A stretch of DNA of 64,000 nucleotides from Escherichia coli (GTDB lineage: Bacteria > Pseudomonadota > Gammaproteobacteria > Enterobacterales > Enterobacteriaceae). The stretch lies in NCBI RefSeq assembly GCF_030013205.1, contig NZ_CP122648.1. One strand, given 5' to 3'. Each line of letters begins with the position of its first letter. The first letter of the stretch is position 1. Positions 1 to 63,253 of the stretch are shown here, piece after piece. The notes beneath the pieces are model-generated. The model had not been told where the DNA came from, did no database searches, and was given only the letters and a program-made list of their open reading frames with translations. The translations under genes were made by a program, and so were the position numbers.

Positions 1-59
1 CAATGATTAATGTTGCGTCTTTGTTAGAGGTCAGATCAGTTGTTTTGGGACTCTGCCTC

Positions 60-383: not shown

Positions 384-628
384 AGCGCGACCCTTTAAAA
401 TGTTAATTAAACTCACTAACTCTGTATCACTCTCATTAACTCTCTATGATTGAAATGTATCTCACTGCTGTTTAACTCTTTCTGATAATCAAGAAAGGAG
501 AGCAAAAAACTGATGGCGCTACCGCTGCAATATGGCCACCATCGCATTGCTGTTACCGTTGGCTTTGGCCAACAAAAAAGGCCAGTGGAAAACTGACCTC
601 TTTTGCTGTGAATGTAGTGTTCTGCGGG

Positions 629-1630: not shown

Positions 1631-1632
1631 AC

Positions 1633-4302
1633 TTAAGCCCCCTCCTTGTTACTAAATATCCAGCATTTCAATACCTCCTTCTCTCTGGCCTCGGCTATTC
1701 CCCTCCCGGCGTTCGCCTGTCTGGATACCTCGCTACGGACGGGCTTGTATCCAATCAGCGATCGAGAACGGCCAGCCTTGAGAAGCTTTATCATTTCGGG
1801 ATTGGTTTGGGTCTTCACGTGGTGAACGGCGGCAACCTGCTCAAGTTGCGGGATACTGACGGCAAACTCATTCTGCCGTCCCTTGCCAAAATGATTTACG
1901 CCGTATGCTGTGATGCCGTCCAGATAGTCGAACGCCTCCCAGAACGCCATCACTTCCGGCAAGTCATCCATTACCGCTTTAGCCTGCTCCTCTGCCATTC
2001 GCTCCAGTTCCAGACATGTGGCATCAAGCCATTCATCCGGGATATCAATAACGCATTTCAGCGCCCTGACCAGTGCAATTAGTTGCGCGTGATTTTTGGC
2101 AATACGCTGATGGCGAATATTCTCGCAACCGTAAAGGCGGGTTGTTTCAGAATCCGAGAGTGCCATAAACAGATCCATAATCGCCCGCTCCTGGCTTACT
2201 GCCCGATGGATAAAACCTGATACCTGCTCAACGGGGTAAAGCTCCAGCCGTTTTGCTGCCAGTCGGCTATCTGGTGAGTGGCGTTTTTTATCGGTGTATA
2301 TACGTACCAGACGCTCGATAATTGCCGATGAGGCGTTTACCGTGGCATTCTGCGCAATCACGACAGCCCCTTTAAAAACGGGGTCATATGTGGCGTTATC
2401 ATTAGTTTTAACACCACGTACCCCAATACCACCGCCGTTATAGAGGCTTTTCAGGTTATCAAAGTCAAACGCACCTCTTTTTTGCGCATTGTCCCCCCGG
2501 TCTGCTTCAATCAGAACAACAGGTAATCCGGCGACCTGTCCAAAAGTTCGCTTCCAGCCTGATTCCGATCCTTTGGTTGGATCAACACCTTCATAGTTGT
2601 CACGGCCACACAAACGCCAACAAAAATCAATCAGCGTTGTTTTACCCGTTCCAGGCTCTCCGGTAATCTCAAGAAAAGGGTAAGACGTGTTTTTCTGCCT
2701 GATTTGTTCGCTGAACAACGAACCCAGCCAGAAGGCCAGGGTAATAATTCCCTTTTCACCAAAAGCCAGCCAGAGATCTTCCACCCAGGATATTGTGAAT
2801 TTATCCGGTTTTTTATAGTTAATCTGCAATATTGGTTTTTTATTCAATGGTTTTGCGTTTATGCCATCAATTTCAAAATAATCCTCTTCATTGATTTCGT
2901 AGGTTTTACCATTACAAACCGCGACATCATTAAACAGCCACGCGCCAATCTCTTTGTTGTATCCGATAAAATCCTGACCGATAACATTTTTTATTGCGGG
3001 AAGGTCATTTTTTATTAATGCATCAAGGTGCGCAGTCGTTCCGGTATAAATACCGCCTTTTGCCACATGCAACAGGCGTTTTTTAAATTCAGATGCGGAT
3101 GTTAATTGTCCTGATGTAAAGGTGTTTTTCACCGTCGCACCATCCGGGAACGTAACACGGAAGTAATACCATGCTTCATCCGTGTCATTGTTTCGAATGT
3201 AATAAAGCGGCGCCGGGTTACAGTTTGCGATTTCTTTTACAGCGCCGGATTCCTTAAGTGCAATTTTGCGCGCTTCATCTTCGTCAACATTTCGCTCATT
3301 TATGACGCGTTCAACAGCCTTCATATGGCGCTCAATATCCAGTTTGAACCAGAAAACACGGTTATCAAAAGTAAAATGAAATTCCTTTCGCTCACGAAAG
3401 GAAAACATTATCAGCGCCTTATCTCTCGGAGATTTTGCCAGCAATAAATCACCGTAATAACGGTATCTTTTCACATCATGGCCACGCAGCTTTCCGGCGA
3501 TGTGTAAATCATTCCAGTCGCGTTTATTGCTGTTTTTTCCTGGTAACGCCGCTGCCGTTCTCCAGCCGTCTTCGGCGCTGCGTTCTGCATGTTTTTTCGC
3601 ATAACGCTCACCCGCACGCCCGTTATCCAGCGCCCACACGATAACCGGACGGGGATTATCCCCGCACAGCTTCGCCAGCTCTTCCAGCGCCTTATCAGGG
3701 TAGTTTACGGCAGACATGACAGAAACGGCCGCAATGCCATTCTGGTTAAGGCTGATGGCATCAAAGATACCCTCACAAATCCAGATTTCTTTGGCCTTGC
3801 TTAAATCATCTCCCGGATAAGCCCACCACAACCCCTTGTAGCTGCCGGAAAAATTCGCCTTGCGCGCGAAGCGTTCCGGTCGGTCTATGATGCGCTCCCA
3901 CCACACGCCGTCAGCCAGTGTAAAACGCACAGTAGCGGCCTGTTCGCCGCTTTCCTTGTCCTGGTATCGCTCCTGAGTAAATGCTCCCTTCAGTGGCTCC
4001 ACAGCAATATTGCGTGCTTCCAGAAGATAAGCTGTCGCCGCTGCGTATGGATTGTCTTTCGTGCTGATATAGCGATCTGACCATGATGAAAACACATCCG
4101 GGTAAAGTTCTTTGGTCAACAGGTCTGTACCGCATTTATTTTCGCGCCCACAGTGCACGATGTACGGCCTTTCAAGGCTGGTAAAGAGCTCCTTCTTTCC
4201 ACATTGCGGACAAACACCATACCGGAGGTAGTTATTTTCTTCTTTGAAGTTGTAATCACGGATAAGACGGTTAATAATCTCTTTTCTGGTGTTATGTTTC
4301 AT
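1633..4302 (-). CDS. replicative primase-helicase (N-terminal zinc ribbon, TOPRIM-like primase core, C-terminal P-loop NTPase)
   Basis: 889 aa; CPQCG...HCGREN zinc motif, WICEGIFDAISL, Walker A GEPGTGKTT; stop lies 2 nt from integrase start. Confidence 0.8.
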   Translation of the reverse strand: MKHNTRKEIINRLIRDYNFKEENNYLRYGVCPQCGKKELFTSLERPYIVHCGRENKCGTDLLTKELYPDVFSSWSDRYISTKDNPYAAATAYLLEARNIAVEPLKGAFTQERYQDKESGEQAATVRFTLADGVWWERIIDRPERFARKANFSGSYKGLWWAYPGDDLSKAKEIWICEGIFDAISLNQNGIAAVSVMSAVNYPDKALEELAKLCGDNPRPVIVWALDNGRAGERYAKKHAERSAEDGWRTAAALPGKNSNKRDWNDLHIAGKLRGHDVKRYRYYGDLLLAKSPRDKALIMFSFRERKEFHFTFDNRVFWFKLDIERHMKAVERVINERNVDEDEARKIALKESGAVKEIANCNPAPLYYIRNNDTDEAWYYFRVTFPDGATVKNTFTSGQLTSASEFKKRLLHVAKGGIYTGTTAHLDALIKNDLPAIKNVIGQDFIGYNKEIGAWLFNDVAVCNGKTYEINEEDYFEIDGINAKPLNKKPILQINYKKPDKFTISWVEDLWLAFGEKGIITLAFWLGSLFSEQIRQKNTSYPFLEITGEPGTGKTTLIDFCWRLCGRDNYEGVDPTKGSESGWKRTFGQVAGLPVVLIEADRGDNAQKRGAFDFDNLKSLYNGGGIGVRGVKTNDNATYDPVFKGAVVIAQNATVNASSAIIERLVRIYTDKKRHSPDSRLAAKRLELYPVEQVSGFIHRAVSQERAIMDLFMALSDSETTRLYGCENIRHQRIAKNHAQLIALVRALKCVIDIPDEWLDATCLELERMAEEQAKAVMDDLPEVMAFWEAFDYLDGITAYGVNHFGKGRQNEFAVSIPQLEQVAAVHHVKTQTNPEMIKLLKAGRSRSLIGYKPVRSEVSRQANAGRGIAEAREKEVLKCWIFSNKEGA

Positions 4303-4310
4303 ATATAAAT

Positions 4311-4343
4311 CCCCCCCACTGCACCTTTTGCAGTGGGTTTTTT
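4311..4343 (+). terminator. hairpin CCCACTGCA-N4-TGCAGTGGG followed by T6 (plus-strand orientation)
   Basis: seen in sequence between 99-aa ORF stop and primase start; would block antisense read-through. Confidence 0.45.
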
Positions 4344-4348
4344 ATTAA

Positions 4349-4648
4349 TTACTCGTTGCTTATTGCTTTGGCAATCCCGGCGGTTTCGGCGCTATGCCAT
4401 GAAAAAATTCCGCCGGATGAATGCATACCAGATTTTATTGATTGTAATTCCCTATAAATAATGTTAGACAGAGATGCAATTTCTTCATTTATAATTTCTG
4501 CTGATGCTCCGCCATTTTTATCGTCAAAAACCACAGATATTAAACTGACGAGATTAATCACATCTGTGAGATCTTCCTTTGCACTTTCTGTAAAAAAGCC
4601 AACATATTCTCTATCTAAAAAATTTTCGCTATTCTGACGTTTAGACAT
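4349..4648 (-). CDS. hypothetical protein, 99 aa, AT-rich
   Basis: ORF track; low GC, no recognisable motif. Confidence 0.45.
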   Translation of the reverse strand: MSKRQNSENFLDREYVGFFTESAKEDLTDVINLVSLISVVFDDKNGGASAEIINEEIASLSNIIYRELQSIKSGMHSSGGIFSWHSAETAGIAKAISNE

Positions 4649-4715
4649 AAAAACTCCCCGACCCGTTAAGGCCGAAATATAAATTTAATTCAGTTATCAG
4701 TTGGTAATTCGGGAA

Positions 4716-4934
4716 TCAGGCGGAAAGCTGCGTCACCTTCAACGCCCTGAAATGTGTCATTCCCAGCTCTTCCAGCCCTTCGGCTGCGCGGCGTATGGCT
4801 TCGCCCGGTCCCGTTCCGTATACCGTTGCATGTGCATGTTTGGTTAACCCACGTTTATTAACGGCATAACCCAACACAAAGAAACGTTTTTCACCACTGC
4901 CATTATTTTTACGGGATGTTGAACGGGTTTTCAT
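4716..4934 (-). CDS. hypothetical small protein, 72 aa
   Basis: ORF track; start overlaps upstream stop (ATGA), suggesting translational coupling. Confidence 0.45.
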   Translation of the reverse strand: MKTRSTSRKNNGSGEKRFFVLGYAVNKRGLTKHAHATVYGTGPGEAIRRAAEGLEELGMTHFRALKVTQLSA

Positions 4935-5119
4935 TTCTTCACCTTTACCACTGATGCTGTGAGTTCTTCTTCTGGCAACTGATATTTCGGCGCAATTTCT
5001 TCCGTATACCTGATAGCGTCCCTTGCCGCTTTTCCTTTTGATTTATATTTATATGTGGTCCGGTAGTTTTCTTCCTCTCCTGTTACCACATTACGCAATT
5101 TAATATGAATCTCGTACAT
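4931..5119 (-). CDS. hypothetical small protein, about 62 aa (start at MYEIH)
   Basis: ORF track 4931..5149; internal ATG preceded by GGAGGGG and placed 2 nt after upstream stop. Confidence 0.4.
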   Translation of the reverse strand: MYEIHIKLRNVVTGEEENYRTTYKYKSKGKAARDAIRYTEEIAPKYQLPEEELTASVVKVKK

Positions 5120-5121
5120 CG

Positions 5122-5304
5122 TTACCCCTCCATGATTTTTACTGCGCATTTGTGGGTTAATCGCCCCTGTTCATTCGTGCGGCTGTACTCCATGCGGCTG
5201 GCAGCACGCAGGGCATCATCACAGGTCTGATATTCCCTGACATGAAAAAACTGACGAACGTCGCCGCTCTGGCAGTTAATCAGGGTGATAAGGAGCTTAA
5301 ACAT
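5122..5304 (-). CDS. hypothetical small protein, about 60 aa (MFKLLITLINCQ...)
   Basis: ORF track 5122..5382; ATG overlaps stop of upstream 57-aa ORF (ATGTTTAA). Confidence 0.4.
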   Translation of the reverse strand: MFKLLITLINCQSGDVRQFFHVREYQTCDDALRAASRMEYSRTNEQGRLTHKCAVKIMEG

Positions 5305-5470
5305 TGCACGCCTCCCGGATACGAATACGGGCAACAGAGACCAGACGGGATGCCGGAAGCAGGGCGCGCGCTTCGCGCTCACTGGCGGCGGTAACGGTAT
5401 GAAGGCGGATATTTTTACCGTGGCACTGCATAAAGCGCCAGATAAAATCAGGGCGTGTTGATATAGCCAT
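5297..5470 (-). CDS. hypothetical small protein, about 57 aa (MAISTRPDFIWRF...)
   Basis: C-terminal part of track ORF 5297..5824; ATG preceded by AAGGAG; upstream part of the track ORF judged noncoding. Confidence 0.4.
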   Translation of the reverse strand: MAISTRPDFIWRFMQCHGKNIRLHTVTAASEREARALLPASRLVSVARIRIREACNV

Positions 5471-5594
5471 TTTGGCGGCTCCTTTGTCTAATTTACGGAG
5501 TCTCGCCAGCACGCTGCTAAACATGGTGGCGGGACGTAACAGGGTTAGCAGACTGGTGACAAAGAAACCAGCAGGCCTTACGGCCTCCCCATTA

Positions 5595-5718
5595 CGCCCC
5601 GCCATAATACGGGAAAGGGTGGTATTACGGGCACAAAAAAACCGCATTACGGAAATATAGCGGCTACCCGCTTTGTCAATCAGGCTGCTAAACCCGGCAC
5701 CCGCTTTATGAGGTGCGG
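5595..5718 (-). ncRNA. conserved three-block noncoding element, copy A (hairpin, then T7-terminated block, then ATTATGGCGGGGCG on minus strand); candidate sRNA or leader attenuator
   Basis: blocks CGCCCCGCCATAAT, GCACAAAAAAACCGC and CAGGCTGC.AAACCCGGCACCCG.TT..TGAGGTGC recur in same order and similar spacing at 59946-60075. Confidence 0.4.
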
Positions 5719-5865
5719 GCAAACGATACGCCATGACAAAAAAGCGAGTCAAGCAATATTGCAAATTATTTTTGCGTGATTGCGCTGAGTAATTGATTTT
5801 TAAGAGTAAAAAAGCCATAATCATTTCTGCCTATTATTTCTTATTGTTGGTTTCAGGTGCACTAA

Positions 5866-5925
5866 ATGCACATCCTTGACTGGTTGGCTCGCTAGCTTTA
5901 GCGAGCTTCTTTTTTGCTCTGCAGC
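5866..5925 (+). terminator. two stem-loops (GTGCA-CTAAA-TGCAC; GCTCGCTAGCTTTAGCGAGC) followed by TTCTTTTTT; intrinsic terminator or sRNA 3' end
   Basis: seen in sequence; no convincing ORF on plus strand upstream. Confidence 0.45.
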
Positions 5926-6377
5926 CAGTACCCGGCCTCCTTCCCTCACATGTAGTCATGTGCTCATTCCAGTCAGGTGGATAATGCTGTATTACCGGAC
6001 ATCCGGTTATGATGTTTAAAGCGTTTGTTTGTTTATGCCACGTGGAGAATATACCCACGCCGCCATTACTTGTATTTATCATAACAGTTCATCCAATTCG
6101 GTTAATGTAACCGGAATAACTCAATTTCATACACTGTAAATAAATGCTGATTTTAAACTTAGCTCCTTGGAATATATTTCTTACGTGTGACGTACAGGTG
6201 AAAATATCCCTCTGATAGTCCATTTTCTTTTATTGGGTCACATCTTTTTACTCCGGTTCCCTTAACAAGGGTAGAGCATCTTTTAAACCATGAATGCATC
6301 TTTGGTTAAGTGATGTTTCTTATTGAATGAAATGTTTAGGCGCATATCGCGCCATGCTGACTATAAAGTGAAAATAA

Positions 6378-6599
6378 TTAAGCCTGAAAACGTTGTTGTT
6401 TTCTTTCTTCTATCCAGTCGATAATTTCCTCTTCAACCCATGCAACCGCACGAGGGCCTATTTTTATTGGTTTGGGGAATATATCCGATTTTATATCTTC
6501 GTAAATTCGAGCTCTCGATCTCCCTGTGATTTCAATGACTCTGGGGAGTCTTATTAATTTTTGAATCCGCCTTTCGCTGGTCTGTGAGTATGCTGACAT
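6378..6599 (-). CDS. alpA: AlpA-family transcriptional regulator / excisionase-like (prophage CP4-57 AlpA type)
   Basis: 73 aa; helix-turn-helix region ...RLPRVIEITGRSRARIYEDIKSDIFPKPIKIGPRAVAWVEEEIIDWI... typical of AlpA. Confidence 0.8.
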   Translation of the reverse strand: MSAYSQTSERRIQKLIRLPRVIEITGRSRARIYEDIKSDIFPKPIKIGPRAVAWVEEEIIDWIEERKQQRFQA

Positions 6600-7117
6600 A
6601 TTGGCCTCCTGTATATGCTGAACACTTTACGTTAGCTCACAGTGGGAGCATGTAAGATCTCGCGGTCGTCTGCGGGACGAGAAAAATCATAAACAACGAA
6701 AAGCGGATTTGTAAATCAGGTCGATTTTTAGACGGGGTTGACATGGACAGTTAGATTTGTTCCATGCGTGAAATATACATTTAGAGCCACTTTAAACCAC
6801 CAGAAAGCGACAAAGAATAACAAGTTAGTGCCAGAAAGGTTTGCTGACTTACCCTTTTAGGCACCAGAAAAGCCCTTTCAGGTCGGTGTAATGCTTGTGA
6901 ACGCTGAAATAGTGGATTCTGAAAACAAAAAAAGAGTTGAAAATGTGATGTGCATCAAAAAATAATATCGATAAAACAGTTTGATTTTTATTTTCTTATC
7001 AAAAGCACTGGTTGATTATGGGAAATGCATTATAAATCAAATGGATATATCTATTTTTTTAGGTTAAAAATCACCAGGTGCTTTTAGTGAGGTCTTATTC
7101 TATTGATTTTAAAAGAT

Positions 7118-7152
7118 AAAAAAATCGGCGTGTCCACATATTGTCCACGCCT
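7118..7152 (-). terminator. intrinsic terminator downstream of integrase (hairpin GGCGTG...CACGCC plus T7 on minus strand)
   Basis: seen in sequence about 45 nt after int stop. Confidence 0.5.
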
Positions 7153-7198
7153 TGAGTTTAATTCAGCCGCTTGGGGTAGTTTAGTTTGTTGAGTTGAT

Positions 7199-8461
7199 TC
7201 AGTTTGTTTCGTTAGCCCATTTAAAATCATAGGGGGCAATATATGCCGTCTTGCAGGTGTCGAGATAATCAGCCCACCATTGCAACATTCGGCGGCGTTC
7301 CTGCATATGTTCAGCTCTGTGAACGTATGCAGCCCGGACACTGCCTCTTTCCCTGTGACTCATCTGAAGCTCAACGGCTTCTCTTGTCCACCTGCCTGAC
7401 TCTGTCAGCGCCGAACAGGCCATGGCCCTGAATCCGTGACCACAAATATCTTTTTTGGTGTCGTATCCCATGTGGCGTAATGCCTTGTTAATGGTGTTTT
7501 CGCTCATCGGTTTTATCTGGTAATGGTCGCCGGGGAAAATAAACACTTCATCACCGGATATATTTCTTATATCGTCAAGAAGCTGCATGGCCTGAGTGGG
7601 TAAAGGGATGGCGTGAGGGGTCCCCATTTTCGTTCCACGATATGAATATTTTACGCCTTCTATTTTTTCGCGTTCTGCTGGTATTACCCACATTGATTTA
7701 TCAAAATCAATTTCATTCCAACGAGCAAAGCGCAATTCACTTGAGCGAATAAAAATTAATAAATTTAATTTTAGTGCAAATTGCGTTAATAACCGTCCAT
7801 TCATCTTATGGTGGTAATCATTTATTTTGCCAAGTAATTCAGGTAATCGCTCAAGGGGAAGAGCGGGGCGATGTTTGGTTTTATTGGTTTCTATTGCACC
7901 GTTCAGTTCCTGTGCTGGATTGTATTTAATCATTCCATTCTGTACAGCGTAGCGCATAATGGCGTTCATTCGCTGCTTGTTACGAGATGCTGTCTCAAGC
8001 ACTCCTTTATCTTCCATTTTGCGTAAAGGAATCAGTAGATCCATGGTTGTGATCTCGTTAATTGGTCTTTTACCAAGAATGGGGAAGATGTGGTTTTCCA
8101 GGTCTTTTAAGACTTTTTGTGCGTGCAATTCGCTCCAGCCTTTTTTCCGGCTGTGCCACTCTCTGGCAACGTCTTCAAAAAGCACTATTTGAGGTTTTGG
8201 AGTGTGCAGTGGGTCAATGCCTTTAGCCAGGCTCGCCAGATATTCATCACGAGCGTTCCTTGCCTGTGCAAGTGTTACGGCAGGATAAATGCCTAAAGCT
8301 CGGGTCGTTTCTTTACCGTTGATAACCTTGCGAAAGCGCCAGTATTTTGAGCCGTTGGGGTGAACATAGAGATACAGCCCTTTCCCGTCACGAAGTTTTT
8401 TAATTTTGTTGTTGTCCTTATCTGGTTTGGCGTTACGTACAGCTACATCAGTCAGTTTCAT
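7199..8461 (-). CDS. int: P4-type (tRNA-associated) tyrosine integrase
   Basis: track ORF 7199..8503 is labelled '+', but the reverse complement from 8503 reads TTG GTT CGA ... ATG AAA CTG ACT and plus strand at 7199-7201 is the stop; likely ATG start at 8461 (MKLTDVAVRNAKPD...). Confidence 0.9.
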   Translation of the reverse strand: MKLTDVAVRNAKPDKDNNKIKKLRDGKGLYLYVHPNGSKYWRFRKVINGKETTRALGIYPAVTLAQARNARDEYLASLAKGIDPLHTPKPQIVLFEDVAREWHSRKKGWSELHAQKVLKDLENHIFPILGKRPINEITTMDLLIPLRKMEDKGVLETASRNKQRMNAIMRYAVQNGMIKYNPAQELNGAIETNKTKHRPALPLERLPELLGKINDYHHKMNGRLLTQFALKLNLLIFIRSSELRFARWNEIDFDKSMWVIPAEREKIEGVKYSYRGTKMGTPHAIPLPTQAMQLLDDIRNISGDEVFIFPGDHYQIKPMSENTINKALRHMGYDTKKDICGHGFRAMACSALTESGRWTREAVELQMSHRERGSVRAAYVHRAEHMQERRRMLQWWADYLDTCKTAYIAPYDFKWANETN

Positions 8462-8639
8462 TATGTTGCTCCTCCAGACGGGTACAAATAAAAATCGAAC
8501 CAAGCATACCCGTTTTTATACCCATTTTAATATGGGCTTCAGGCAAATTTAACGAGAGATAACGAGACAATGGAAGAGGTTTAACTCATTGAAAATCAAT
8601 GGGTAATGGTTTTTTCTGAGAGATTGCGAGAAGTTGCGA

Positions 8640-8714
8640 TGGTGTCCCCTGCAGGAATCGAACCTGCAATTAGCCCTTAGGAGGGGCTCGTTATATCCAT
8701 TTAACTAAGAGGAC
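8640..8714 (-). tRNA. argW: tRNA-Arg (anticodon CCU)
   Basis: reverse complement reads GTCCTCTTAGTTAAATGGATATAACGAGCCCCTCCTAAGGGCTAATTGCAGGTTCGATTCCTGCAGGGGACACCA with T-arm GGTTCGATTCC and CCA end. Confidence 0.9.
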
Positions 8715-33540: not shown

Positions 33541-34761
33541 ATGAAACGTGCAGTGATTACTGGCCTGGGCATTGTTTCCAGCATCGGTAATAACCAGCAG
33601 GAAGTCCTGGCATCTCTGCGTGAAGGACGTTCAGGGATCACTTTCTCTCAGGAGCTGAAGGATTCCGGCATGCGTAGCCACGTCTGGGGCAACGTAAAAC
33701 TGGATACCACTGGCCTCATTGACCGCAAAGTTGTGCGCTTTATGAGCGACGCATCCATTTATGCATTCCTTTCTATGGAGCAGGCAATTGCAGATGCTGG
33801 CCTCTCCCCGGAAGCTTACCAGAATAACCCGCGCGTTGGCCTGATTGCAGGTTCTGGCGGCGGTTCCCCGCGTTTCCAGGTCTTCGGCGCTGACGCAATG
33901 CGCGGCCCGCGCGGCCTGAAAGCGGTTGGCCCGTATGTGGTCACCAAAGCGATGGCATCTGGCGTTTCTGCCTGCCTCGCCACGCCGTTTAAAATTCACG
34001 GCGTTAACTACTCCATCAGCTCCGCGTGTGCGACCTCCGCACACTGTATCGGTAACGCAGTAGAGCAGATCCAACTGGGCAAACAGGACATCGTGTTTGC
34101 TGGCGGCGGCGAAGAGCTGTGCTGGGAAATGGCTTGCGAATTCGACGCAATGGGCGCGCTGTCTACCAAATACAACGACACCCCGGAAAAAGCCTCCCGT
34201 ACTTATGACGCTCACCGTGACGGTTTCGTTATCGCTGGCGGCGGCGGTATGGTGGTGGTCGAAGAACTGGAACACGCGTTGGCACGTGGTGCTCATATCT
34301 ACGCTGAAATCGTTGGCTACGGCGCAACGTCTGATGGCGCAGACATGGTTGCTCCGTCTGGCGAAGGCGCAGTGCGTTGCATGAAGATGGCGATGCACGG
34401 TGTTGATACCCCAATCGACTACCTGAACTCCCACGGTACTTCGACTCCGGTTGGCGACGTGAAAGAGCTGGCGGCTATCCGTGAAGTGTTCGGCGATAAG
34501 AGCCCGGCGATTTCTGCAACCAAAGCAATGACCGGTCACTCTCTGGGCGCTGCTGGCGTACAGGAAGCTATCTACTCTCTGCTGATGCTGGAACACGGCT
34601 TTATCGCCCCGAGCATCAACATTGAAGAGCTGGACGAACAGGCTGCGGGTCTGAACATCGTGACCGAAACGACCGATCGCGAACTGACCACCGTGATGTC
34701 TAACAGCTTCGGCTTCGGCGGCACCAACGCCACGCTGGTAATGCGTAAGCTGAAAGATTAA
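33541..34761 (+). CDS. fabB: 3-oxoacyl-ACP synthase I FabB
   Basis: 406 aa; KAS I sequence. Confidence 0.97.
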
Positions 34762-56272: not shown

Positions 56273-56383
56273 GCTTACGGGATTCTGAAATCCCGTTTTT
56301 GCCTGTTTTATGCGCGCTTCATATATCGCGGCGCGTTTTTTGCTCATTTACGGGATTTGTGAATCCCGTTTCTGTCTGTTTTT
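56273..56383. repeat. two about 37-bp direct repeats, each a hairpin followed by a T-run (ACGGGATTCTGAAATCCCGT TTTTGCCTGTTTT; ACGGGATTTGTGAATCCCGT TTCTGTCTGTTTTTT)
   Basis: seen in sequence upstream of parM-like gene, second copy inside 3' end of A. Confidence 0.5.
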
Positions 56384-59141
56384 TGTTTCCACTGGTCAGG
56401 CCTCCCCGCAGCAGGTCTGCTTTGCGGCGGGCGCGTTCAGTGGTTTCACTGATTCTCTGTGCGTGCTCTGCGTCGCGGATGGCGCGCAGCATGTCAGAAA
56501 GCACGGTAACGGGTGTTTTCATGGTGTTCTGGTCCTGCTGAAGTGTGGATGCCAGGCGTGCGGCGGCTTCGGGGTCTGATGCCCCCAGCTGTTCCAGATA
56601 GCTGGCGACCGGGTTATGGCGGATCTCCGTGCTGCTTACGCCGTGGTTACGGCTCAGGCGCTGCCAGAGCTGCGTGATCCGGCTGTCCGGTCGGGTATCC
56701 GGTTTGCGTACAATTTCAAATCCCTGCGGTGCAATGATGCTGCCGTCGACGTACAGACTGCCGCCCCGTAACAGGTGCTGCATCTGCTGTTCACCGATAT
56801 GCAGGCCGAGAGATTCAGCAGACTCCCGCCATTCTTTAGCGAGTAACTCGTGGTTATCAGGCAAAGGCCGTGGCTGTTTGCGGCTCTGTGTCCAGTTCTG
56901 CATTTCATCACTGCTGTTTTTTGCCTGTTTGTCACGCAGCGAACGCATCAGCGCCCGGCGTTCGTGCCGTTTCAGTGAGCGCATCCATTCATTCACGTCA
57001 ACGCCGTCAGGAAGCTGCGGCCACGGTGCTGGCCGTTCTTCCGGCTGTTCTGTCCCGTTGTTGTCCGTTTCCTGTACACGGGGACAGTTATTGCCACGAG
57101 TCCAAGGGGCGGCAGGGCCGCCCTGAAGGTCAAAACCATTTTCGCGGGCGCTGTCTTCCGCTTCCGGTTTACGTCTTACCAGCTTCCAGTTATCCGGATG
57201 TGTGCACACACGGGAAGACTCCCCGATGAGCGGTGACCAGATCCCGTAAATCTGTACGCTCTGTTCGCCGTAATCGTTCAGCTCATCTGCGAGGTCGTAG
57301 GCGGTGCGAATCAGGTAGTCTTTGCGTGGAACAAGTACGCCGCCCTGTTTTTCAATGTAGGAGGCAAAACACCCGGCATCAGCGGCAGCGAGCACTGCAT
57401 CCATTGCGTCATCCTTCAGTCGTTGCGGGCCTTCCGGGTTGCGTGCCATCTGGCTGGCAAGGCGGCGCAGTTCACGCCACACCTGACGGGAGGGGATGCC
57501 AAAGAACTGGAACTGGCGGACCCGGTGAAGGCGCGCCCAGCCGATGGCGCGCTCCACGCTCTCGGCCATTGATTTTCCGGTTTCGTGGTCAACGCGTGGC
57601 TTGCCCGTTTTCGGGTCGATACCATCCACGGCGCGGCTGTCCAGGTTCTTTCCGATGTAGGTGGCGATGTAGCTGGTTGGCGTGCCTTTTGAGCCGTCGA
57701 CGTACTCCGCCTTAAAACGCGGAGTTATGTCATCGCCCAGCTCGTGGCGGTCTTCCTGAATGGCAATATCGCAGACGTGGGACACGATGGTTTCAATCTC
57801 GTCCGGATGTGCAAAGACCATCATATGCCAGTGCACAGTGCCGTCATGGTGAGGCTCCACCGTGCGGATGCCATACCAGCGAAGACCGTCGCGGTTCAGT
57901 TTTTTGCGGACCGCCGCAAAAAACGTGTTAACCAGGTAATCGCTGGAGTCGCGCATGGTGGCCCCGTTCCATTTGGGATTCGGATGACCGTTCTCTGTTG
58001 TGGCGTGGTATTTTGACGGGCAGGTGACAGTCAGAAACACCGCTCTGTCGCCACGGGCTTCGGCCAGAAGTTCCAGTCCCTTCATGGTGGCCATCATTTC
58101 TGCCTTACGGTGAACCGGGTTACTTACTCCCGCGTAATACACCGTCTCGAGATCAATCGTGAACCCGTCTTCATTTTCCAGCATGAAACTTTTCAGGAAA
58201 TCGCGTGTTTTCTCGCGCTGTGCGCGAAACTCGCTTAACGCGTCCTGGCTCAGATAGGGTGATGTTTTTCTGGAAACCAGACAGGCGGCGCGGAGTTGTT
58301 CTTCTCTCCACTCGCAACGTAACAGCCACAGTTTGCGTTTCCACCATTCCGCACAGGTCAGGCGAAGGATTGCGCCCGGCAGCAGCTCCGTGTCCGGTTC
58401 GTTCCTCCGGTCTTTGTCTGTTGTCAGTGCGTCATAATGTGGAGGCATGGCGTGCAGGTGTAACGCCATGCGGGCCAGCATCTGATACGCCTTCAGCGTT
58501 ACATCCATGGTCAGTTCGCCATCAGTAGCGCCAAAGCCATCGCAGAGTTTTTCGAAGGTGCTGCTGAACATCGCCGCCGTCATGGTGGCCAGCGTCTGTA
58601 TCTGGTGTTTGTTGAGCTGCGGCAGGTAAAGCAAATCGTCCAGGCGTTCGCGTCCGGCAAGGGAGCGATAACCCGGTGTCAGCCAGCGGTGATCGGTGCG
58701 GTCCAGACGTTCGAATATTTTGCGCAGGGTTCCGCGCGCGTAGCGTTCCGCCTGCCAGCTCTTTTTGCCTTTCTGACGATCGGCTTCCTGCTTCTTGCGC
58801 AGGAAGGAGAGGTGGCGAATAAGCGGATCGCGCAGATAGGACGGCAGCAGGCGCAGCGAGGCCATGGCTTCATCCACCGCGCCGCGTGCCTGTTTTCTGG
58901 CGTCTCCTGCCAGTGTGATGGTTTTGTCCTGTTTTTCCTGTGCGTCCAGGCTTTTATTAATCAGGTTGCCCAGCGGCGTGGCGGAGAACGCCGCATCAGC
59001 CATTTCCTGGCGGCGCTCGTTCTCTACCCGGTAGGCATCCAGCCAGGAGGAAAGCGCGGATTCAGGAGCGGAGATCCCCGTTCCTTCACGCCCCACTGCG
59101 TGGCGCGGTTGTTGCCAGTCCCTGATGTACTCTGCCGTCAT
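56319..59141 (-). CDS. A: P2 gpA-like replication initiation endonuclease, extended (940 aa)
   Basis: rolling-circle Rep motifs and tyrosine region; about 180 aa longer than remembered P2 A. Confidence 0.85.
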   Translation of the reverse strand: MTAEYIRDWQQPRHAVGREGTGISAPESALSSWLDAYRVENERRQEMADAAFSATPLGNLINKSLDAQEKQDKTITLAGDARKQARGAVDEAMASLRLLPSYLRDPLIRHLSFLRKKQEADRQKGKKSWQAERYARGTLRKIFERLDRTDHRWLTPGYRSLAGRERLDDLLYLPQLNKHQIQTLATMTAAMFSSTFEKLCDGFGATDGELTMDVTLKAYQMLARMALHLHAMPPHYDALTTDKDRRNEPDTELLPGAILRLTCAEWWKRKLWLLRCEWREEQLRAACLVSRKTSPYLSQDALSEFRAQREKTRDFLKSFMLENEDGFTIDLETVYYAGVSNPVHRKAEMMATMKGLELLAEARGDRAVFLTVTCPSKYHATTENGHPNPKWNGATMRDSSDYLVNTFFAAVRKKLNRDGLRWYGIRTVEPHHDGTVHWHMMVFAHPDEIETIVSHVCDIAIQEDRHELGDDITPRFKAEYVDGSKGTPTSYIATYIGKNLDSRAVDGIDPKTGKPRVDHETGKSMAESVERAIGWARLHRVRQFQFFGIPSRQVWRELRRLASQMARNPEGPQRLKDDAMDAVLAAADAGCFASYIEKQGGVLVPRKDYLIRTAYDLADELNDYGEQSVQIYGIWSPLIGESSRVCTHPDNWKLVRRKPEAEDSARENGFDLQGGPAAPWTRGNNCPRVQETDNNGTEQPEERPAPWPQLPDGVDVNEWMRSLKRHERRALMRSLRDKQAKNSSDEMQNWTQSRKQPRPLPDNHELLAKEWRESAESLGLHIGEQQMQHLLRGGSLYVDGSIIAPQGFEIVRKPDTRPDSRITQLWQRLSRNHGVSSTEIRHNPVASYLEQLGASDPEAAARLASTLQQDQNTMKTPVTVLSDMLRAIRDAEHAQRISETTERARRKADLLRGGLTSGNKKQTETGFTNPVNEQKTRRDI

Positions 59142-59147
59142 AGTGAT

Positions 59148-59513
59148 TTACTTCGTCATGCCATTCAGGGTGTCGCGGCAGACTGTAGCCAGCCGCTGAA
59201 TTTCCAGCACGGTGTCTTCTGTGTCGGCATGGCGATGTGTGATGCGGATGCTGTCGGCAATCACATCGACGATTGCAGAGGATGGGCGCTGGTAAATGCC
59301 AATAACGGACGGGGTGCCACCTTCAATGCGGTAAAGCCTGTAATTTCCCTCGTGGCTGTCAATCATGTAGCGACCATCAATAACAATCTTTCCGTCAGCG
59401 AGCTGCGGTACAGGCAGGGATTTCAGGTACATGTCATAACGATCACGCACGCGAGCGGCAAGATCACGCTCTGTGTTGAGCAGGTATTCAAGAAAGTCGT
59501 TGGCGAGAATCAT
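59148..59513 (-). CDS. hypothetical early-operon protein, 121 aa
   Basis: ORF track; immediately upstream of A. Confidence 0.5.
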   Translation of the reverse strand: MILANDFLEYLLNTERDLAARVRDRYDMYLKSLPVPQLADGKIVIDGRYMIDSHEGNYRLYRIEGGTPSVIGIYQRPSSAIVDVIADSIRITHRHADTEDTVLEIQRLATVCRDTLNGMTK

Positions 59514-59585
59514 TGCGGCAATCCTCTTGTTACAGATGTGCGAAGGCCTCCCGCCGCAAGGTGCAGGAAAGGCCCGGAACAGGAA

Positions 59586-59816
59586 TTAATGGAGTTTGTT
59601 TTGCTGCTGGATGAGCTGTTGAAGCTCGTGCAGATCATCCGCCAGATAGCTGAAAACAGAGGCGGAATAAATGTTTGATAGTGCGTGGCTGCGCTCATGC
59701 AACATATTGATGTGCATGATTTGCGCGACGCGTGATGCGCGGGAAAGTCTGCGGTTGATTTCAGTCTGGATGTGACGACGCTCCGCGATAGCGCGGTGTG
59801 GTTTGCGGTTTGCCAT
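59586..59816 (-). CDS. hypothetical early-operon protein, 76 aa
   Basis: ORF track. Confidence 0.45.
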   Translation of the reverse strand: MANRKPHRAIAERRHIQTEINRRLSRASRVAQIMHINMLHERSHALSNIYSASVFSYLADDLHELQQLIQQQNKLH

Positions 59817-59945
59817 GGTGTGGCCCCTTGTGTAGTAAGTTGTGAAAACTCACCATCCAGAGCTGCGAAACTGTGGGTGGCGAGACGTACGAGGTTCGCA
59901 GTACCGGCTACACAAGAACCCGGCCCGACCGAAGTCGGCCCCGTA

Positions 59946-60075
59946 CGCCCCGCCATAATTCTGACGCGAAAAAAACGTGGCAATACAGTACGCACAAAAA
60001 AACCGCTGGCGCGGTTGTGCGCTTGTGTAGTCAGCAGGCTGCGAAACCCGGCACCCGTTTTGTGAGGTGCAGCGG
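59946..60075 (-). ncRNA. conserved three-block noncoding element, copy B (candidate sRNA/attenuator; minus-strand hairpin plus ACCGC-GCCA-GCGGT-T7 terminator)
   Basis: same three blocks as 5595-5718 in same order; track ORF 59510..60127 judged a spurious translation. Confidence 0.4.
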
Positions 60076-60138
60076 AAATGTAACCTGACTGATTGCGGCA
60101 TGGCAAGCGGTTTTTTTGTGTGTGCATGTTCTGGTTTC

Positions 60139-60438
60139 TTAGTGGTTCAGAAAAAAATCAAAAACCTTGTCAATGCGTTGCAGCAGCTCTTGCTGTATTG
60201 CTTTCGGCGTTTCCGGTTCGCCTGGCGCCTCCAACGTCGCGCAGAAATCCTCGATTTCATGACGGAGCGTCAGGCGAATGGCGAGAGGTGTGGTTCTGGC
60301 GTGCTCCAGCTCATCCAGCAGCGCCAGCACAGCAGACGGCGAGAGCATTGCGCGAAACGCCAGTAATTTTTGAGGCGTTGCCATTCGTTGCAGGTCAGTC
60401 GCCAGTTCGCGTAATTCCTGGTGGTTGATGGCGCTCAT
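60139..60438 (-). CDS. hypothetical early-operon protein, 99 aa
   Basis: ORF track. Confidence 0.45.
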   Translation of the reverse strand: MSAINHQELRELATDLQRMATPQKLLAFRAMLSPSAVLALLDELEHARTTPLAIRLTLRHEIEDFCATLEAPGEPETPKAIQQELLQRIDKVFDFFLNH

Positions 60439-60680
60439 GCTCTGGCTTCCTTCAGTAGCTGGTTAAACGTGTTGGTAAGTGGATTGCCGCACCCGAACGG
60501 CATCGGGTTTATCTGGTAAGAAAAGCGACCGCCTGTTTTGCGCTCTTTTCTTATGACTGAACCGCTGCGCCAGAGTCGGCGTAACTCCGCATTAATGGCT
60601 GTGGTTGGGGTATTCAGTGCTGCGGCGATTTCTCCACCGCTACACCCCGGATTGGCGGCGATATAGTCCAGAATGGTCAT
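60435..60680 (-). CDS. putative winged-helix DNA-binding protein, 81 aa
   Basis: ORF track; overlapping start/stop with neighbours. Confidence 0.45.
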   Translation of the reverse strand: MTILDYIAANPGCSGGEIAAALNTPTTAINAELRRLWRSGSVIRKERKTGGRFSYQINPMPFGCGNPLTNTFNQLLKEARA

Positions 60681-60880
60681 CTGCGTGACTCCTGTACCTG
60701 TCGGATAAGGTTCACCCGCACCACATTCGTGGCGCAGAAGTAAGTGCCGTCAGTGAGATAGATGTGATGTGCATCCTTTTCTGAACGGTGTTTGTCGATT
60801 GTGGTAATCAGGCGTTCGTCGACTTCGTATTCACGCCCTCTGGAGGTAAAACGAACGACAGGAAAATGCTTAATTGCCAT
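60677..60880 (-). CDS. hypothetical early-operon protein, 67 aa
   Basis: ORF track. Confidence 0.4.
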   Translation of the reverse strand: MAIKHFPVVRFTSRGREYEVDERLITTIDKHRSEKDAHHIYLTDGTYFCATNVVRVNLIRQVQESRR

Positions 60881-61076
60881 TACGCCTCCTTGGCGTGTGC
60901 GAATACCTCCGCGAATGCGGATTGTTTTTACATTTTCTTATTTAATCTGTGGTTTTATTTGCTCTGTTATTCGCCAGTGAAAAAGCGTTCAATCTTTTTT
61001 ATTGAATGAATAATTCGCATAATCCCAATAGCGCAGGCCACCGAAATAATCAGAACAAGCCATGAGATAAATATAC

Positions 61077-61319
61077 TCATGCGATATTCCCCAGCTCATA
61101 CGGTTCAATATGTTCCCCGCATTCTGCGGCACAGATCAGCTCGGAAAGTTCGTTAAGTGCATCCAGATCATCAGCGTAAAAAGCCACGTCATACAGACTT
61201 CGGATTGCTCTGGTCAATGAGTCACGGGCCGCACGTTCAGCATGAGCGCCTGATGCACTTAAGCGAAAATAAAAGCGCTCAAGTGCTTTGTTAATGAGAG
61301 TTTTATATTCTTTGCCCAT
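61077..61319 (-). CDS. hypothetical early-operon protein, 80 aa
   Basis: ORF track. Confidence 0.4.
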   Translation of the reverse strand: MGKEYKTLINKALERFYFRLSASGAHAERAARDSLTRAIRSLYDVAFYADDLDALNELSELICAAECGEHIEPYELGNIA

Positions 61320-61330
61320 CGCAACGCCCT

Positions 61331-61618
61331 TTAATCTGCTTTCTGAATTTCAGTTTCTGAATCCATACAGATAATTTCGATATAGGGTTTATCGCCATTA
61401 ACCTGACGAGCCTTTTCAGCTTCGCTAATGATTTCGCGTACGGTCTGGTACGGAAGTTCCACGATCAGTCGCGTGCCGTTCAGATAAACGTAAGTGGCTT
61501 CGGCGGCTCCGTTTTTCCCCGCCGGAGCCACTCCATCAATAGCGGATGCGCGTAATAACAGTTCACCGCGAAAATCAATAAAGCGGATAAATACACCTTG
61601 AGTATGGTCTTTAGTCAT
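61331..61618 (-). CDS. hypothetical early-operon protein, about 95 aa (start at MTKDHTQG)
   Basis: track ORF 61331..61717 trimmed to avoid overlap with upstream gene. Confidence 0.4.
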   Translation of the reverse strand: MTKDHTQGVFIRFIDFRGELLLRASAIDGVAPAGKNGAAEATYVYLNGTRLIVELPYQTVREIISEAEKARQVNGDKPYIEIICMDSETEIQKAD

Positions 61619-61628
61619 AAAGCACCTG

Positions 61629-61970
61629 TTATAAATCAGCCTGTTTAATAAAACTCTGTCCACGCAGCAGACGATCAACCGTGCGAAGCGCTTCGTATAA
61701 TGTGAAATCCTGCCCAAACTGATTGTCGCCGCTGCTCAGAGCAAAAATGCGGTTTCCGGTAAACGGATTGCGCGGGCATTTGTGGACCACGATTCCAGCT
61801 TTCTCAATCAGCCAGGCATGCTCGCCGATTTGTTTTACTGGGTAGCCATCCGGCGTTGCGTGTGTATCACTCAGGCTGTAGCGGATGTTGCTGCGTGATG
61901 CACTGGTAGCAAAACGGTTAGCGTGGCGTTCTGCACCATTGCGAAAGCGTGAATTACGTTGCTGTTTCAT
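61629..61970 (-). CDS. hypothetical early-operon protein, 113 aa
   Basis: ORF track. Confidence 0.4.
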   Translation of the reverse strand: MKQQRNSRFRNGAERHANRFATSASRSNIRYSLSDTHATPDGYPVKQIGEHAWLIEKAGIVVHKCPRNPFTGNRIFALSSGDNQFGQDFTLYEALRTVDRLLRGQSFIKQADL

Positions 61971-62222
61971 GTTAAAGACTCTGTACAGATTTAATTATTC
62001 CGGCATAGAGGCCGAACTCAAAATATTTGCGATTAAATCGCATCGCATTGTTTTCACGTTTTGCGGACTGCTGGTTCATTTTCGTTTGCCTCCGCACATG
62101 AGAATTGCGCCGCTTAAGAGGTAACCGAAGTTAATTGATAGTATTACAATTAACATAAGGTCCAATTTGTCCATGCCACACATAATTACCCTCATTGCAG
62201 TAGTTGTGGGTTGTCAGGTTTC

Positions 62223-62429
62223 TCACCCGATAAACCAGATAACAAACGCTATCAACATCGCCCCAATAGCTGCCGGGAAAAGTCCTTTGGTATAAGCGGC
62301 GATATATTCAATGCTGAGTTCAATAAAGCGTTCTTTATGTCCCGTTAACTTGCGAAACAAATAGATCTCTATTACGCCTATCTCAATAAAAACAAGGGTC
62401 AGAATGGCGCTGATGATATGGCTGGTCAT
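62223..62429 (-). CDS. small membrane protein, 68 aa
   Basis: ORF track; two hydrophobic segments; directly downstream of cox. Confidence 0.45.
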   Translation of the reverse strand: MTSHIISAILTLVFIEIGVIEIYLFRKLTGHKERFIELSIEYIAAYTKGLFPAAIGAMLIAFVIWFIG

Positions 62430-62435
62430 TTATGA

Positions 62436-62723
62436 CTAAAGTCCCAGCCACAACAACCATGCGTCGCGGCGTTCTTTCGGTTGCTCAAAAAACGCTTTGC
62501 GCATGCCTTCGTTAAATGCTGGCAGATATACCCAGTTTTCTGATGCACGCGTCTTTACTGAACCTGGTTTCACAAAGTCAATTGTTGGTAGCTTTGCTGC
62601 GTCAATCATGGTTCTGACTGTGGATTCCTTGCGGCCGATCATCTTGGCGAATAGTTGATATGGCACCGCTTCAAGTGGATATGGTGCTACCTGAATGAAC
62701 CCCCCAAGCTCTGATTCGCTCAT
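62436..62723 (-). CDS. cox: P2 Cox-like excisionase / early-operon repressor
   Basis: ...PYQLFAKMIGRKESTVRTMIDAAKLPTIDF...WVYLPAFNEG...RRDAWLLWLGL matches remembered P2 Cox. Confidence 0.85.
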   Translation of the reverse strand: MSESELGGFIQVAPYPLEAVPYQLFAKMIGRKESTVRTMIDAAKLPTIDFVKPGSVKTRASENWVYLPAFNEGMRKAFFEQPKERRDAWLLWLGL

Positions 62724-62836
62724 TGTGGTAATCTCCCTAATTCGTTCGAATGGCTCAAAATGGCTTATATCGGCTTATTTGAGTGTTTTTATGTTTGTGC
62801 CCGATGTGGCATGTTGTGATGGAGGATATGCCCGAT
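62724..62836. promoter_or_regulatory. divergent Pe/Pc-like switch region with three GGCT repeats at 10-bp spacing (62752-62780), candidate C-repressor operators
   Basis: seen in sequence between divergent cox and C. Confidence 0.5.
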
Positions 62837-63157
62837 ATGGCATCTTTGTCAAGCATGGGTGAAAAATTTCGCCTGATTCGTGAAGCAGAAGGTATGACCC
62901 GCCAGGAGTTTGCGGATTGTGTTGGGCTGCCTTATGGGACGGTAACTAACTATGAGGTGAGGGGGAAGCAAGTAACAGAGGGTGCCTTACTTAAGGTTAC
63001 GAAACACCCTAAATTTAAGAAGTATGCTTATTGGTTATCAACAGATGAAACGATGCCGGAGGTCGGGCAAATTTCTCCGGCTCTCTCTCTTGATGGTTCC
63101 TGCAATTCGGAGGGAGATCGCGTTTCAACCGAAACAATCCAAAAATTATCCCGCTGA
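62837..63157 (+). CDS. C: P2 C-like immunity repressor (start uncertain; track ORF begins 62783)
   Basis: HTH region ...MTRQEFADCVGLPYGTVTNYE...KYAYWL...GQISPAL matches remembered P2 C; GGAGG 11 nt upstream of ATG 62837. Confidence 0.8.
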   Translation: MASLSSMGEKFRLIREAEGMTRQEFADCVGLPYGTVTNYEVRGKQVTEGALLKVTKHPKFKKYAYWLSTDETMPEVGQISPALSLDGSCNSEGDRVSTETIQKLSR

Positions 63158-63253
63158 GGCCAGAAAACTGGTTAGACCTGCTTTTTGTCTGGTCTGATTA
63201 TTGCTGGAAAGAGGCTGGAGAAATTGTAGAGCGGTTCATTGGAGGGCTTCGTA

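Follow-up and report, generated by a model that had tools for sequence, protein, structure and literature searches.

A probable antisense RNA switch of the IsrK-C4 type in the early operon of a P88-like prophage of Escherichia coli

The noncoding element found near 60 kb in the window, a stretch of Escherichia coli DNA of 64,000 nucleotides that was analysed as a whole, is very probably an IsrK-C4 antisense RNA control module. Judged from its sequence, it is a homologue of the modules of P4, P1 and Gifsy-1, and it is embedded within the early operon of a P88-like prophage (Xuanwuvirus, P2 family). IsrK-C4 modules, also referred to as seqA-CI modules, belong to the textbook biology of P4 and P1 and are on record from many prophages, and the element described here is one of these already known modules. 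IsrK has been equated with seqA, and C4 with CI, in the literature (Barquist et al.). The element is one of two in the window and is termed copy B, the other being copy A at 5.5-5.7 kb. All features of the window are on the minus strand unless otherwise indicated, and their coordinates are given in the 5' to 3' direction.

A sequence-only reading of the window had placed a shared noncoding element with a hairpin on the minus strand at 59946-60075, and the sequence there matches its description. The approximately 300 bp said to be without a credible ORF correspond to a gene-free gap of 322 bp (60138..59817), bounded by the stop codon of a 99-aa ORF (60139) and the ATG of a 76-aa ORF (59816), and the hairpin with its T7 is found as AACCGC-GCCA-GCGGTT at 60016..60001, with the T7 at 60002..59996. 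The proposed relationship to the copy at 5595-5718 is borne out by 98 identities over 113 aligned columns (69.5% counting gaps) and by an alignment score of 65, as against -93 +/- 12 for 200 shuffles; the gap is around 70% identical to the copy at 5.5-5.7 kb. The location given for the element was right, but its limits had been drawn too short. Similarity to copy A persists through 59873, and the element therefore reaches about 130 nt further in the 3' direction, with a conserved unit that spans from a promoter-like site (60106) to the start codon (59816). The element is indeed shared and noncoding, but it is not novel, as it consists of two described RNA families, isrK and C4.

The assignment to a P2-like early operon also stands, with a Cox-like gene (62723..62436), a divergently oriented repressor gene (62783..63157) and a replication endonuclease gene all found around copy B, which lies around 2.6 kb inside the operon driven from the Cox-side early promoter. 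Over the surrounding 1.6 kb, identity is 99.6-100% with Xuanwuvirus P884B11 and several E. coli prophages and approximately 95% with phage P88. This 1.6-kb region (window 59100-60700) is present in 1279 of 5426 complete E. coli genomes.

The first gene downstream of the element encodes a derepression protein of 76 aa belonging to the epsilon family (59816..59586), which matches Pfam Derepression (PF25738, E 8e-8) and phrog_3688, shares 29% identity with P4 epsilon (E 4e-9) and carries the RefSeq name "derepression protein". By analogy with P4, we infer that this protein acts as an anti-repressor in a helper-type phage. It is followed by a 121-aa ORF (59513..59148; phrog_3237), which lies between the derepression gene and gene A, and then by gene A itself (59141..56319), encoding a gpA-like replication endonuclease of 940 aa that matches phrog_91, "nicking at origin of replication" (E 6e-275). 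RefSeq also has the replication endonuclease at these coordinates, as the last gene past the switch. A search of NCBIfam returned no match for the 205-, 83-, 76-, 121- or 99-aa ORFs. A scan meant to reach more distant relatives of the derepression protein yielded close ones alone, 89-100% identical, and the module is found upstream of the derepression gene in all 80 viral contigs that encode them.

An Rfam scan of the whole window at gathering thresholds gave five hits, four of which represent copies A and B, and all four are full-model matches to isrK or C4 on the minus strand. At copy B, the E values of this whole-window search exclude chance for both RNAs. The IsrK-like small RNA (60070..59996) matches Rfam RF01394 over model positions 1-77 of 77, with 64.1 bits against a gathering threshold of 50 (E 2.1e-11). 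It is 75 nt in length and is composed of two 5' hairpins, a single-stranded linker and a Rho-independent terminator made up of the stem at 60016..60001 and the T-run at 60002..59996, the terminator being identical with the hairpin of the earlier reading. Upstream, a putative sigma-70-like promoter that matches the consensus (60106..60077; TTGCCA, 18 nt, TACATT) stops 7 nt before the IsrK 5' end, and can alternatively be read with TTACAT and a 17-nt spacer. The consensus promoter scan found 2 sites where 0.6 were expected, and the putative promoter region is variable at 6 of 35 columns among 26 colinear relatives. A further Rfam family, c4-a1b1 (RF03163), was detected at copy B in a relaxed scan only, with 20.9 bits at 60083..60031 against a gathering threshold of 46.7; elsewhere, the same model gives 44.1 bits for P4 seqA, just under the threshold, and 48.1 bits for Gifsy-1, which passes. 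The IsrK 5' region of copy B is better described by the isrK than by the c4-a1b1 model, and the RNA is on sequence grounds the equivalent of P4 seqA and of the c4-a1b1 region.

The second RNA is a C4-type antisense RNA (59960..59873), which matches Rfam RF01695 over model positions 1-87 of 87 with 83.2 bits against a gathering threshold of 45 (E 7.4e-15). Its architecture is that of a long basal stem around two hairpins, and the minimum free energy (MFE) fold agrees with the Rfam structure. The basal stem is acceptor-like and is followed by CCCAC, that is, a discriminator plus CCA. The similarity makes this RNA the equivalent of the P4 CI RNA and of Salmonella STnc1160. The second promoter-like site, TTGCCA-17-AATTAT at 59983..59955, was rejected as a C4 promoter: its -10 element coincides with the conserved AUUAUGG at the start of C4, transcription would start within the basal stem, and the -35 partner is missing from copy A.

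Two segments of C4 are unpaired in the Rfam structure, namely b' in the loop of hairpin 2 (59916..59908, CUUGUGUAG) and a' in the junction (59901..59895, CUGCGAA), and each has complements on either side of the antisense RNA. Within IsrK, a1 (60045..60039, UUCGCAG) occupies the loop of hairpin 2 and is complementary to a', and b1 (60030..60022, CUACACAAG) lies in the single-stranded linker and is complementary to loop b'. Within the leader, a2 (59869..59863, UUCGCAG) is located 4 nt past the 3' end of C4 and is again complementary to a', and b2 (59835..59825, CUACACAAGGG) covers the Shine-Dalgarno sequence of the 76-aa gene, with 8 nt between its end and the ATG. The predicted pairings are of 7 bp for a'-a2 and 11 bp for b'-b2. 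Copy B hence has the features of a P1/P4-type module, in which a'/b' are complementary to a2/b2, b2 lies on the ribosome-binding site of the first ORF and a second copy of the target, a1/b1, lies upstream of the antisense RNA. The 9-mer CUACACAAG occurs 3 times in the 64-kb window, as b1, within b2 and as the complement of b', where 0.34 occurrences are expected. RNAduplex, applied to C4 and its flanks as whole RNAs, was uninformative: it takes no account of intramolecular structure, and the duplexes that it predicted were unrealistically long, with shuffle statistics that were weak. Complementarity restricted to the loops was used instead, together with counts of covariation. Loops read from single-sequence MFE folds were mis-called in several cases and were replaced by a structure-anchored pattern.

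A 14-mer from the 5' stem of C4, searched for in viral contigs, gave 55 distinct genuine modules representing 23 a'/b' specificity types. The b1/b2 and a1/a2 sequences match their own C4 in all of these, and b2 lies over the Shine-Dalgarno sequence in every type. Cognate b'-b2 combinations reach 10-11 contiguous pairs in 23 of 23 types, as compared with 1% of 504 non-cognate combinations that reach at least 10. Covariation was counted on a gapless alignment of the seven P88-like types. Between C4 and IsrK, 100% of positions are paired and 9 of 16 pairs have changed on both sides, which was equalled in none of 500 shuffles; between C4 and the leader, 96.8% are paired and 8 of 18 pairs have changed on both sides. 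Controls in which these pairings were slid gave 27-55% paired. Taken site by site across the seven types, a1-a' retains 7 of 7 pairs (100% paired, with both partners changed at 2 of them), b1-b' has changed on both sides at 7 of 9 pairs, and a2-a' retains 7 of 7 pairs (100% paired, 2 of them compensatory). Outside the pairing sites, IsrK and C4 are nearly invariant. A further 80 contigs with close relatives of the derepression protein add new, re-assorted a/b combinations.

The P4 immunity region, with the order PLE promoter, seqA, CI RNA/seqB, seqC, epsilon and alpha, and the immI region of P1 and P7, with the order a1 b1 - c4 - a2 b2 - icd - ant, provide the closest precedents. The antisense RNA is cut from a longer precursor by RNase P in both P1 and P4, with PNPase also taking part in P4. 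Just upstream of epsilon, P4 carries isrK at 8692..8615 (60.8 bits) and C4 at 8507..8420 (74.9 bits). Copy B mirrors P4 in having isrK and then C4 on the same strand and in the same order, with an epsilon-family gene and then replication genes downstream; moreover, the historic P4 "cI" ORF and the 205-aa ORF that overlies copy B represent the same frame, and both match Phage_ASH. In contrast, P4 is a satellite and the host element of copy B is a helper-type P2-family phage, around 245 nt separate CI from epsilon in P4 whereas the epsilon-like gene of copy B follows directly after b2, and the alpha primase of P4 is replaced by the gpA endonuclease. The P1 side of the comparison draws on Rfam family definitions and the established literature. 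As in P1/P7 immI, target pairs flank the antisense RNA, b2 lies on the ribosome-binding site of the first ORF, a few a'/b' bases set the immunity type, and an Icd-like gene is present, here after copy A. The differences are that the first gene after copy B is of the epsilon type rather than icd and that a1/b1 are carried on a separate terminated small RNA, IsrK, with c4-a1b1 below threshold.

The module is also found in phage P88 (isrK 5028-5102, C4 5138-5225), in Gifsy-1 (isrK 34316..34240, 79.3 bits; C4 34214..34131, 69 bits), where it corresponds to IsrK and the STnc1160/orf45 region, and in the lambdoid phage mEp460 (isrK 2501-2577, 67 bits; C4 2602-2689, 83.6 bits). Neither the isrK nor the C4 family was found in the int-C-cox-B-A-old region of P2. 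The lambdoid copies upstream of Rha/antirepressor genes (mEp460, Stx2 phages and ST64B) have 70-73% nucleotide identity over the module, but differ in having an Rha/Ant-type antirepressor downstream and an annotated CDS that swallows the RNA genes.

Gifsy-1 shares with copy B the succession of isrK, C4 and an anti-repressor gene, and the first AUG of its orf45 likewise lies in the C4 5' stem, at position 107 as compared with 115 in copy B. It is a lambdoid phage in which, unlike copy B, the module lies beside the Q antiterminator, and its orf45 frame has 45 codons and ends at the first gene, whereas the corresponding frame of copy B has 148 codons and ends at the second. Translation of the Gifsy-1 orf45, and its coupling to anrP, are documented (Hershko-Shalev et al. 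2016, PMC4825925), and its stop codon overlaps the anrP ATG as ATGA. Two isrK mutations that give high expression, G28A and G31A, are offset by C162U and C159U, respectively (PMC4825925, Table 1D), and when mapped on Gifsy-1 both G28-C162 and G31-C159 proved to be base pairs between a1 (26-32) and a' (158-164). Supplied in trans, IsrK raises translation of the anti-repressor 139-fold, whereas IsrK-G28A and IsrK-G31A do not (PMC4825925). Three points are specific to the lineage of copy B, namely the position of the module in a P2-type early operon, the epsilon-type gene right after b2 and the extended orf45-like frame; they leave the category unchanged, and the module is therefore to be counted as already known.

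In the mechanism that we propose for copy B, the promoter at around 60106..60077 would drive the 75-nt IsrK RNA, with most transcripts halting at its own terminator, and both read-through transcripts and those from the upstream early promoter would run on into C4. By analogy with the action of RNase P in P1 and P4, C4 would probably be cut out of these longer transcripts. Its b' and a' segments would then pair with b2 and a2 of the leader, occlude the ribosome-binding site of the derepression gene and block its translation, and expression of the 121-aa ORF and gene A would probably be lowered by polarity, with Rho terminating the untranslated RNA. Within read-through RNA, a1/b1 would instead pair with a'/b' in cis. 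The MFE fold of this RNA contains the cis pairing (z = -3.6), in agreement with "structure A" of PMC4825925, and leaves the b2/Shine-Dalgarno region unpaired, and repression would therefore need free, processed C4 acting in trans. Free IsrK would act as a trans anti-antisense activator, as shown experimentally for Gifsy-1, and its terminator may also attenuate early-promoter transcripts before they reach gene A. The hypervariable a/b sequences would define immunity types, and the module as a whole may give a P2-family phage a second level of control over immunity and induction, one based on RNA. Type-specific immunity, and repression of the downstream anti-repressor and replication genes by copy B, are what analogy with the known systems would predict.

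A P4-like mode of action can be entertained tentatively as an alternative, in which C4 pairs with a1/b1 and a2/b2 on nascent transcripts of the early operon and causes transcription to end prematurely, the IsrK terminator and a Rho-dependent site within the first gene being the two candidate stopping points, so that the module acts mainly as a gate on gene A. The gene order is as in P4, the P4 RNAs fall into the same Rfam families, an intrinsic terminator lies midway along the early operon, ahead of gene A, and premature termination has been raised by the Gifsy-1 authors for STnc1160 (PMC4825925). The placement of b2 over the Shine-Dalgarno sequence in every type argues instead that translational control is primary, as for P1 icd, and the Gifsy-1 effect was 139-fold on translation as against 8-fold on transcription (PMC4825925). 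The P4-like mode is in any case compatible with the antisense mechanism set out above.

The IsrK-C4 control model does not explain the long open frame that starts from the C4 AUG. This frame of 148 codons (59956..59510) opens with the AUG that lies in the 5' stem of C4, where orf45 starts in Gifsy-1. It traverses the derepression gene in +1, and its stop codon overlaps the start codon of the 121-aa ORF as ATGA. The frame at the orf45 position is open for 148-154 codons in the P88-like phages, and the long frame together with the ATGA overlap is found in 7 of 8 lineages whose derepression proteins are less than 85% identical; the lineages with the long frame include three with derepression proteins at 29-42% identity, and 72 of 75 close relatives have it as well. 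The frame stays open in 0.4-11% of trials per lineage when the order of codons is shuffled, and in 9-65% under synonymous resampling. The frame could serve in coupling or could have arisen by an accident of composition, and we regard it as rather unlikely that the frame from 59956 is deliberately maintained and translated as an "extended orf45". Were this so, one stretch of DNA would encode a structured antisense RNA and the leader that it targets, and would also act as a coupling ORF by which ribosomes bypass the anti-repressor gene and reach the 121-aa ORF and gene A, giving one switch with two alternative translational outputs.

It is quite improbable that IsrK serves chiefly as a trans-acting, Hfq-dependent sRNA on host mRNAs and that its adjacency to C4 is incidental. 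Such a role would suit the Rfam family title, "Hfq binding RNA", as well as the U-rich terminator tail and the single-stranded linker of IsrK, but in every type a1/b1 vary in step with the C4 next to them, the 64-kb window contains no match to the b1 9-mer beyond the module sites, and the Gifsy-1 phenotypes depend on the cis locus (PMC4825925).

A further possibility concerns the 205-aa ORF (60127..59510), which overlies the promoter-like site, IsrK, C4, the leader and the derepression gene. The sequence-only reading had doubted this ORF and named a genuine conserved protein here as the observation that would overturn its account; such a protein was looked for and not found, and the doubt is upheld. 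Residues 16-109, which are the translation of 60082..59801 and hence of IsrK, C4 and the leader, match Pfam Phage_ASH (PF10554, E 1.4e-5) and several PHROG "transcriptional regulator" families. These matches, together with the PGAP text "similar to ash family protein", a frame that is open in 36 of 36 P88-like modules and the translation of the 45-codon part from the C4 AUG in Gifsy-1 (PMC4825925), are what could be said for a genuine Ash-family protein, encoded by the whole ORF or its Ash-like part, whose coding function accounts for the conservation. However, the historic P4 "cI gene product (137 aa)", a CDS that lies over the CI RNA in the same frame, is likewise a Phage_ASH match (E 8e-16), and P4 immunity is known to be mediated by RNA from the P4 literature cited in PMC3632133 and PMC4825925. 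Variable columns at the three codon positions of the 205-aa frame number 4/7/6 in IsrK and 4/7/5 in C4, so that no excess at third positions was found in either RNA (6 of 17 and 5 of 16 variable columns), whereas in the 76-aa gene they peak at its own third position (37 versus 25 and 21). Moreover, the variation is concentrated in the pairing sites, where changes compensate one another in the RNA, and 7 of 18 P4-like relatives with intact RNA pairing sites have 1-8 stops in the frame. The ORF has no NCBIfam match, and it would have to cross a promoter, a terminator and, out of frame, a conserved gene. Purifying selection on a protein, as a mark of true membership of the Phage_ASH family, was not found despite the HMM match. 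From these comparisons we conclude that the 205-aa ORF is not a conserved protein gene, with a reservation for the part of its frame from 59956 onwards, which is the orf45-like frame described above, and consider a genuine Ash protein highly improbable. The Phage_ASH family appears to be the translated P4 CI RNA region; the true epsilon family is a distinct Pfam entry, and PF10554 has been used in the literature as an "epsilon" marker in cataloguing P4-like satellites.

The view that the element plays no part in regulation, and is no more than an inert relic or a generic repeat of the terminator-cassette kind, which might be drawn from the absence of an RNA gene at either copy A or copy B in the RefSeq annotation of the two loci, is scarcely credible in view of the full-length Rfam matches for both RNAs, the three-way compensatory variation at the pairing sites, which contradicts a relic, the presence of the region in 1279 complete E. 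coli genomes and the unbroken linkage with the derepression gene in the viral contigs.

Copy A (5716..5522) belongs to a P4-like island at tRNA-Arg and likewise contains an IsrK (5716..5635, 52.1 bits with Rfam isrK) and a C4 (5609..5522, 79.7 bits with Rfam C4). Its a1 and a2 are both UUAGCAG, with an a' of CUGCUAA, and its b1 is UGACAAAG, with b' CUUUGUCA at 5564..5557 and b2 GACAAAGGAG at 5488..5479. The island has the order integrase, AlpA-like HTH, IsrK-C4, Icd-like gene, small ORFs and an 889-aa toprim primase. The Icd-like gene encodes a protein of 57 aa (5470..5297; NCBIfam NF033153, 46.6 bits against a cut-off of 25), and is predicted to be the gene that copy A regulates. With copy A in a P4-like island and copy B in a P2-family prophage, the window therefore holds both a helper-type prophage and a satellite-like island. 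The two copies differ in specificity, both in b' (CUUUGUCA in A, CUUGUGUAG in B) and in a' (CUGCUAA and CUGCGAA, respectively), and cross-pairing between them is limited to runs of 4-8 pairs as compared with 7-11 for cognate sites. Copies A and B are thus predicted to be hetero-immune, with no cross-regulation, and it may be that a helper-type phage and a P4-like satellite share a hypervariable a/b "address code" in order to stay mutually blind.

The module marks the control point of an epsilon-type anti-repressor and a replication gene in a large P2-family lineage. As the 1.6-kb region is found in around one quarter of complete E. coli genomes, the logic of induction and immunity, and the interplay with P4-like satellites, are directly testable. 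The practical value of recognizing these modules lies in annotation, with spurious or over-extended CDSs placed on their RNAs by RefSeq and GenBank. At copy A, RefSeq lengthens the Icd-like CDS to 175 aa, over the RNA genes. Cases of mis-annotation include this 175-aa "Icd-like" protein, P88 gp13, mEp460 "Rha" and the "ash family protein".

The IsrK-C4 module is, as judged from sequence matching, a feature of the P88/Xuanwuvirus lineage and not one general to P2-family phages, because the int-C-cox-B-A-old region of phage P2 (L206, 24000-33593) gave no match to either isrK or C4 at gathering thresholds. In the window, the P88-like P2-family prophage (56319-64000) lies around 50 kb from a P4-like island (1-8714), which is found at a tRNA-Arg (8643-8714) and harbors an integrase, an AlpA-like gene, its own IsrK-C4 module, an Icd-like gene, an 889-aa toprim primase and a second integrase. 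The two modules differ in specificity type, which is set by the combination of the unpaired C4 segments a' and b', and the island and prophage may possibly represent a satellite-helper pair. Across the viral-contig loci (L004-L205), the a' and b' segments re-assort independently of each other; b' GUUCUGCGUUUG, for instance, is combined with a' UACUGCGAA in some modules and with a' UUGUGGAAA in others. This re-assortment suggests recombination between the a' and b' sites, together with diversifying selection on immunity type.

Within the prophage module, the basal stem of C4 has the 3' strand GUCUCGCCACC (59886..59876), which is complementary to GGAUGGUGAG (59858..59849), located directly past a2; P4-like copies carry UGGCGAGAC where GGAUGGUGAG stands here. 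The pairing (59849-59886, minus strand) is present in the MFE structure of the read-through RNA, and this predicted helix may be an alternative one, similar to what Gifsy-1 has in its structure A/B switch. Directly upstream of C4, TTGCCA-17-AATTAT (59955-59983, minus strand) gives a second match of the sigma-70 type, which is probably not a promoter: the conserved first bases of C4, AUUAUGG, supply its -10 element, and no matching -35 is present in copy A, the island module.

An open frame of 148 codons (59510-59956, minus strand) starts at an AUG inside the C4 5' stem, the position of orf45 in Gifsy-1. The frame is +1 relative to the derepression gene, passes through the whole of that gene, and terminates where the 121-aa ORF starts, the two overlapping as ATGA. 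Such an arrangement is kept across lineages whose derepression proteins are only 29-42% identical, yet despite such conservation codon periodicity is absent from the frame.

Annotated CDSs overlie the RNA genes in copy A, P88 and mEp460. In copy A, this is the RefSeq Icd-like CDS (5297-5824, minus strand), extended to 175 aa, of which only residues 127-168 form the Icd domain. The P88 gp13 CDS (L207, 5033-5221) covers both IsrK and C4 on the opposite strand, and the mEp460 'Rha' CDS (L124, 2141-3292) contains both RNAs. The obsolete 137-aa 'cI' ORF of phage P4 (L125, 8168-8584, minus strand) overlies the P4 CI RNA, and matches the Pfam family Phage_ASH (PF10554; E 8e-16). The Pfam family of true epsilon is PF25738; the epsilon marker used in a survey of P4-like satellites is PF10554.
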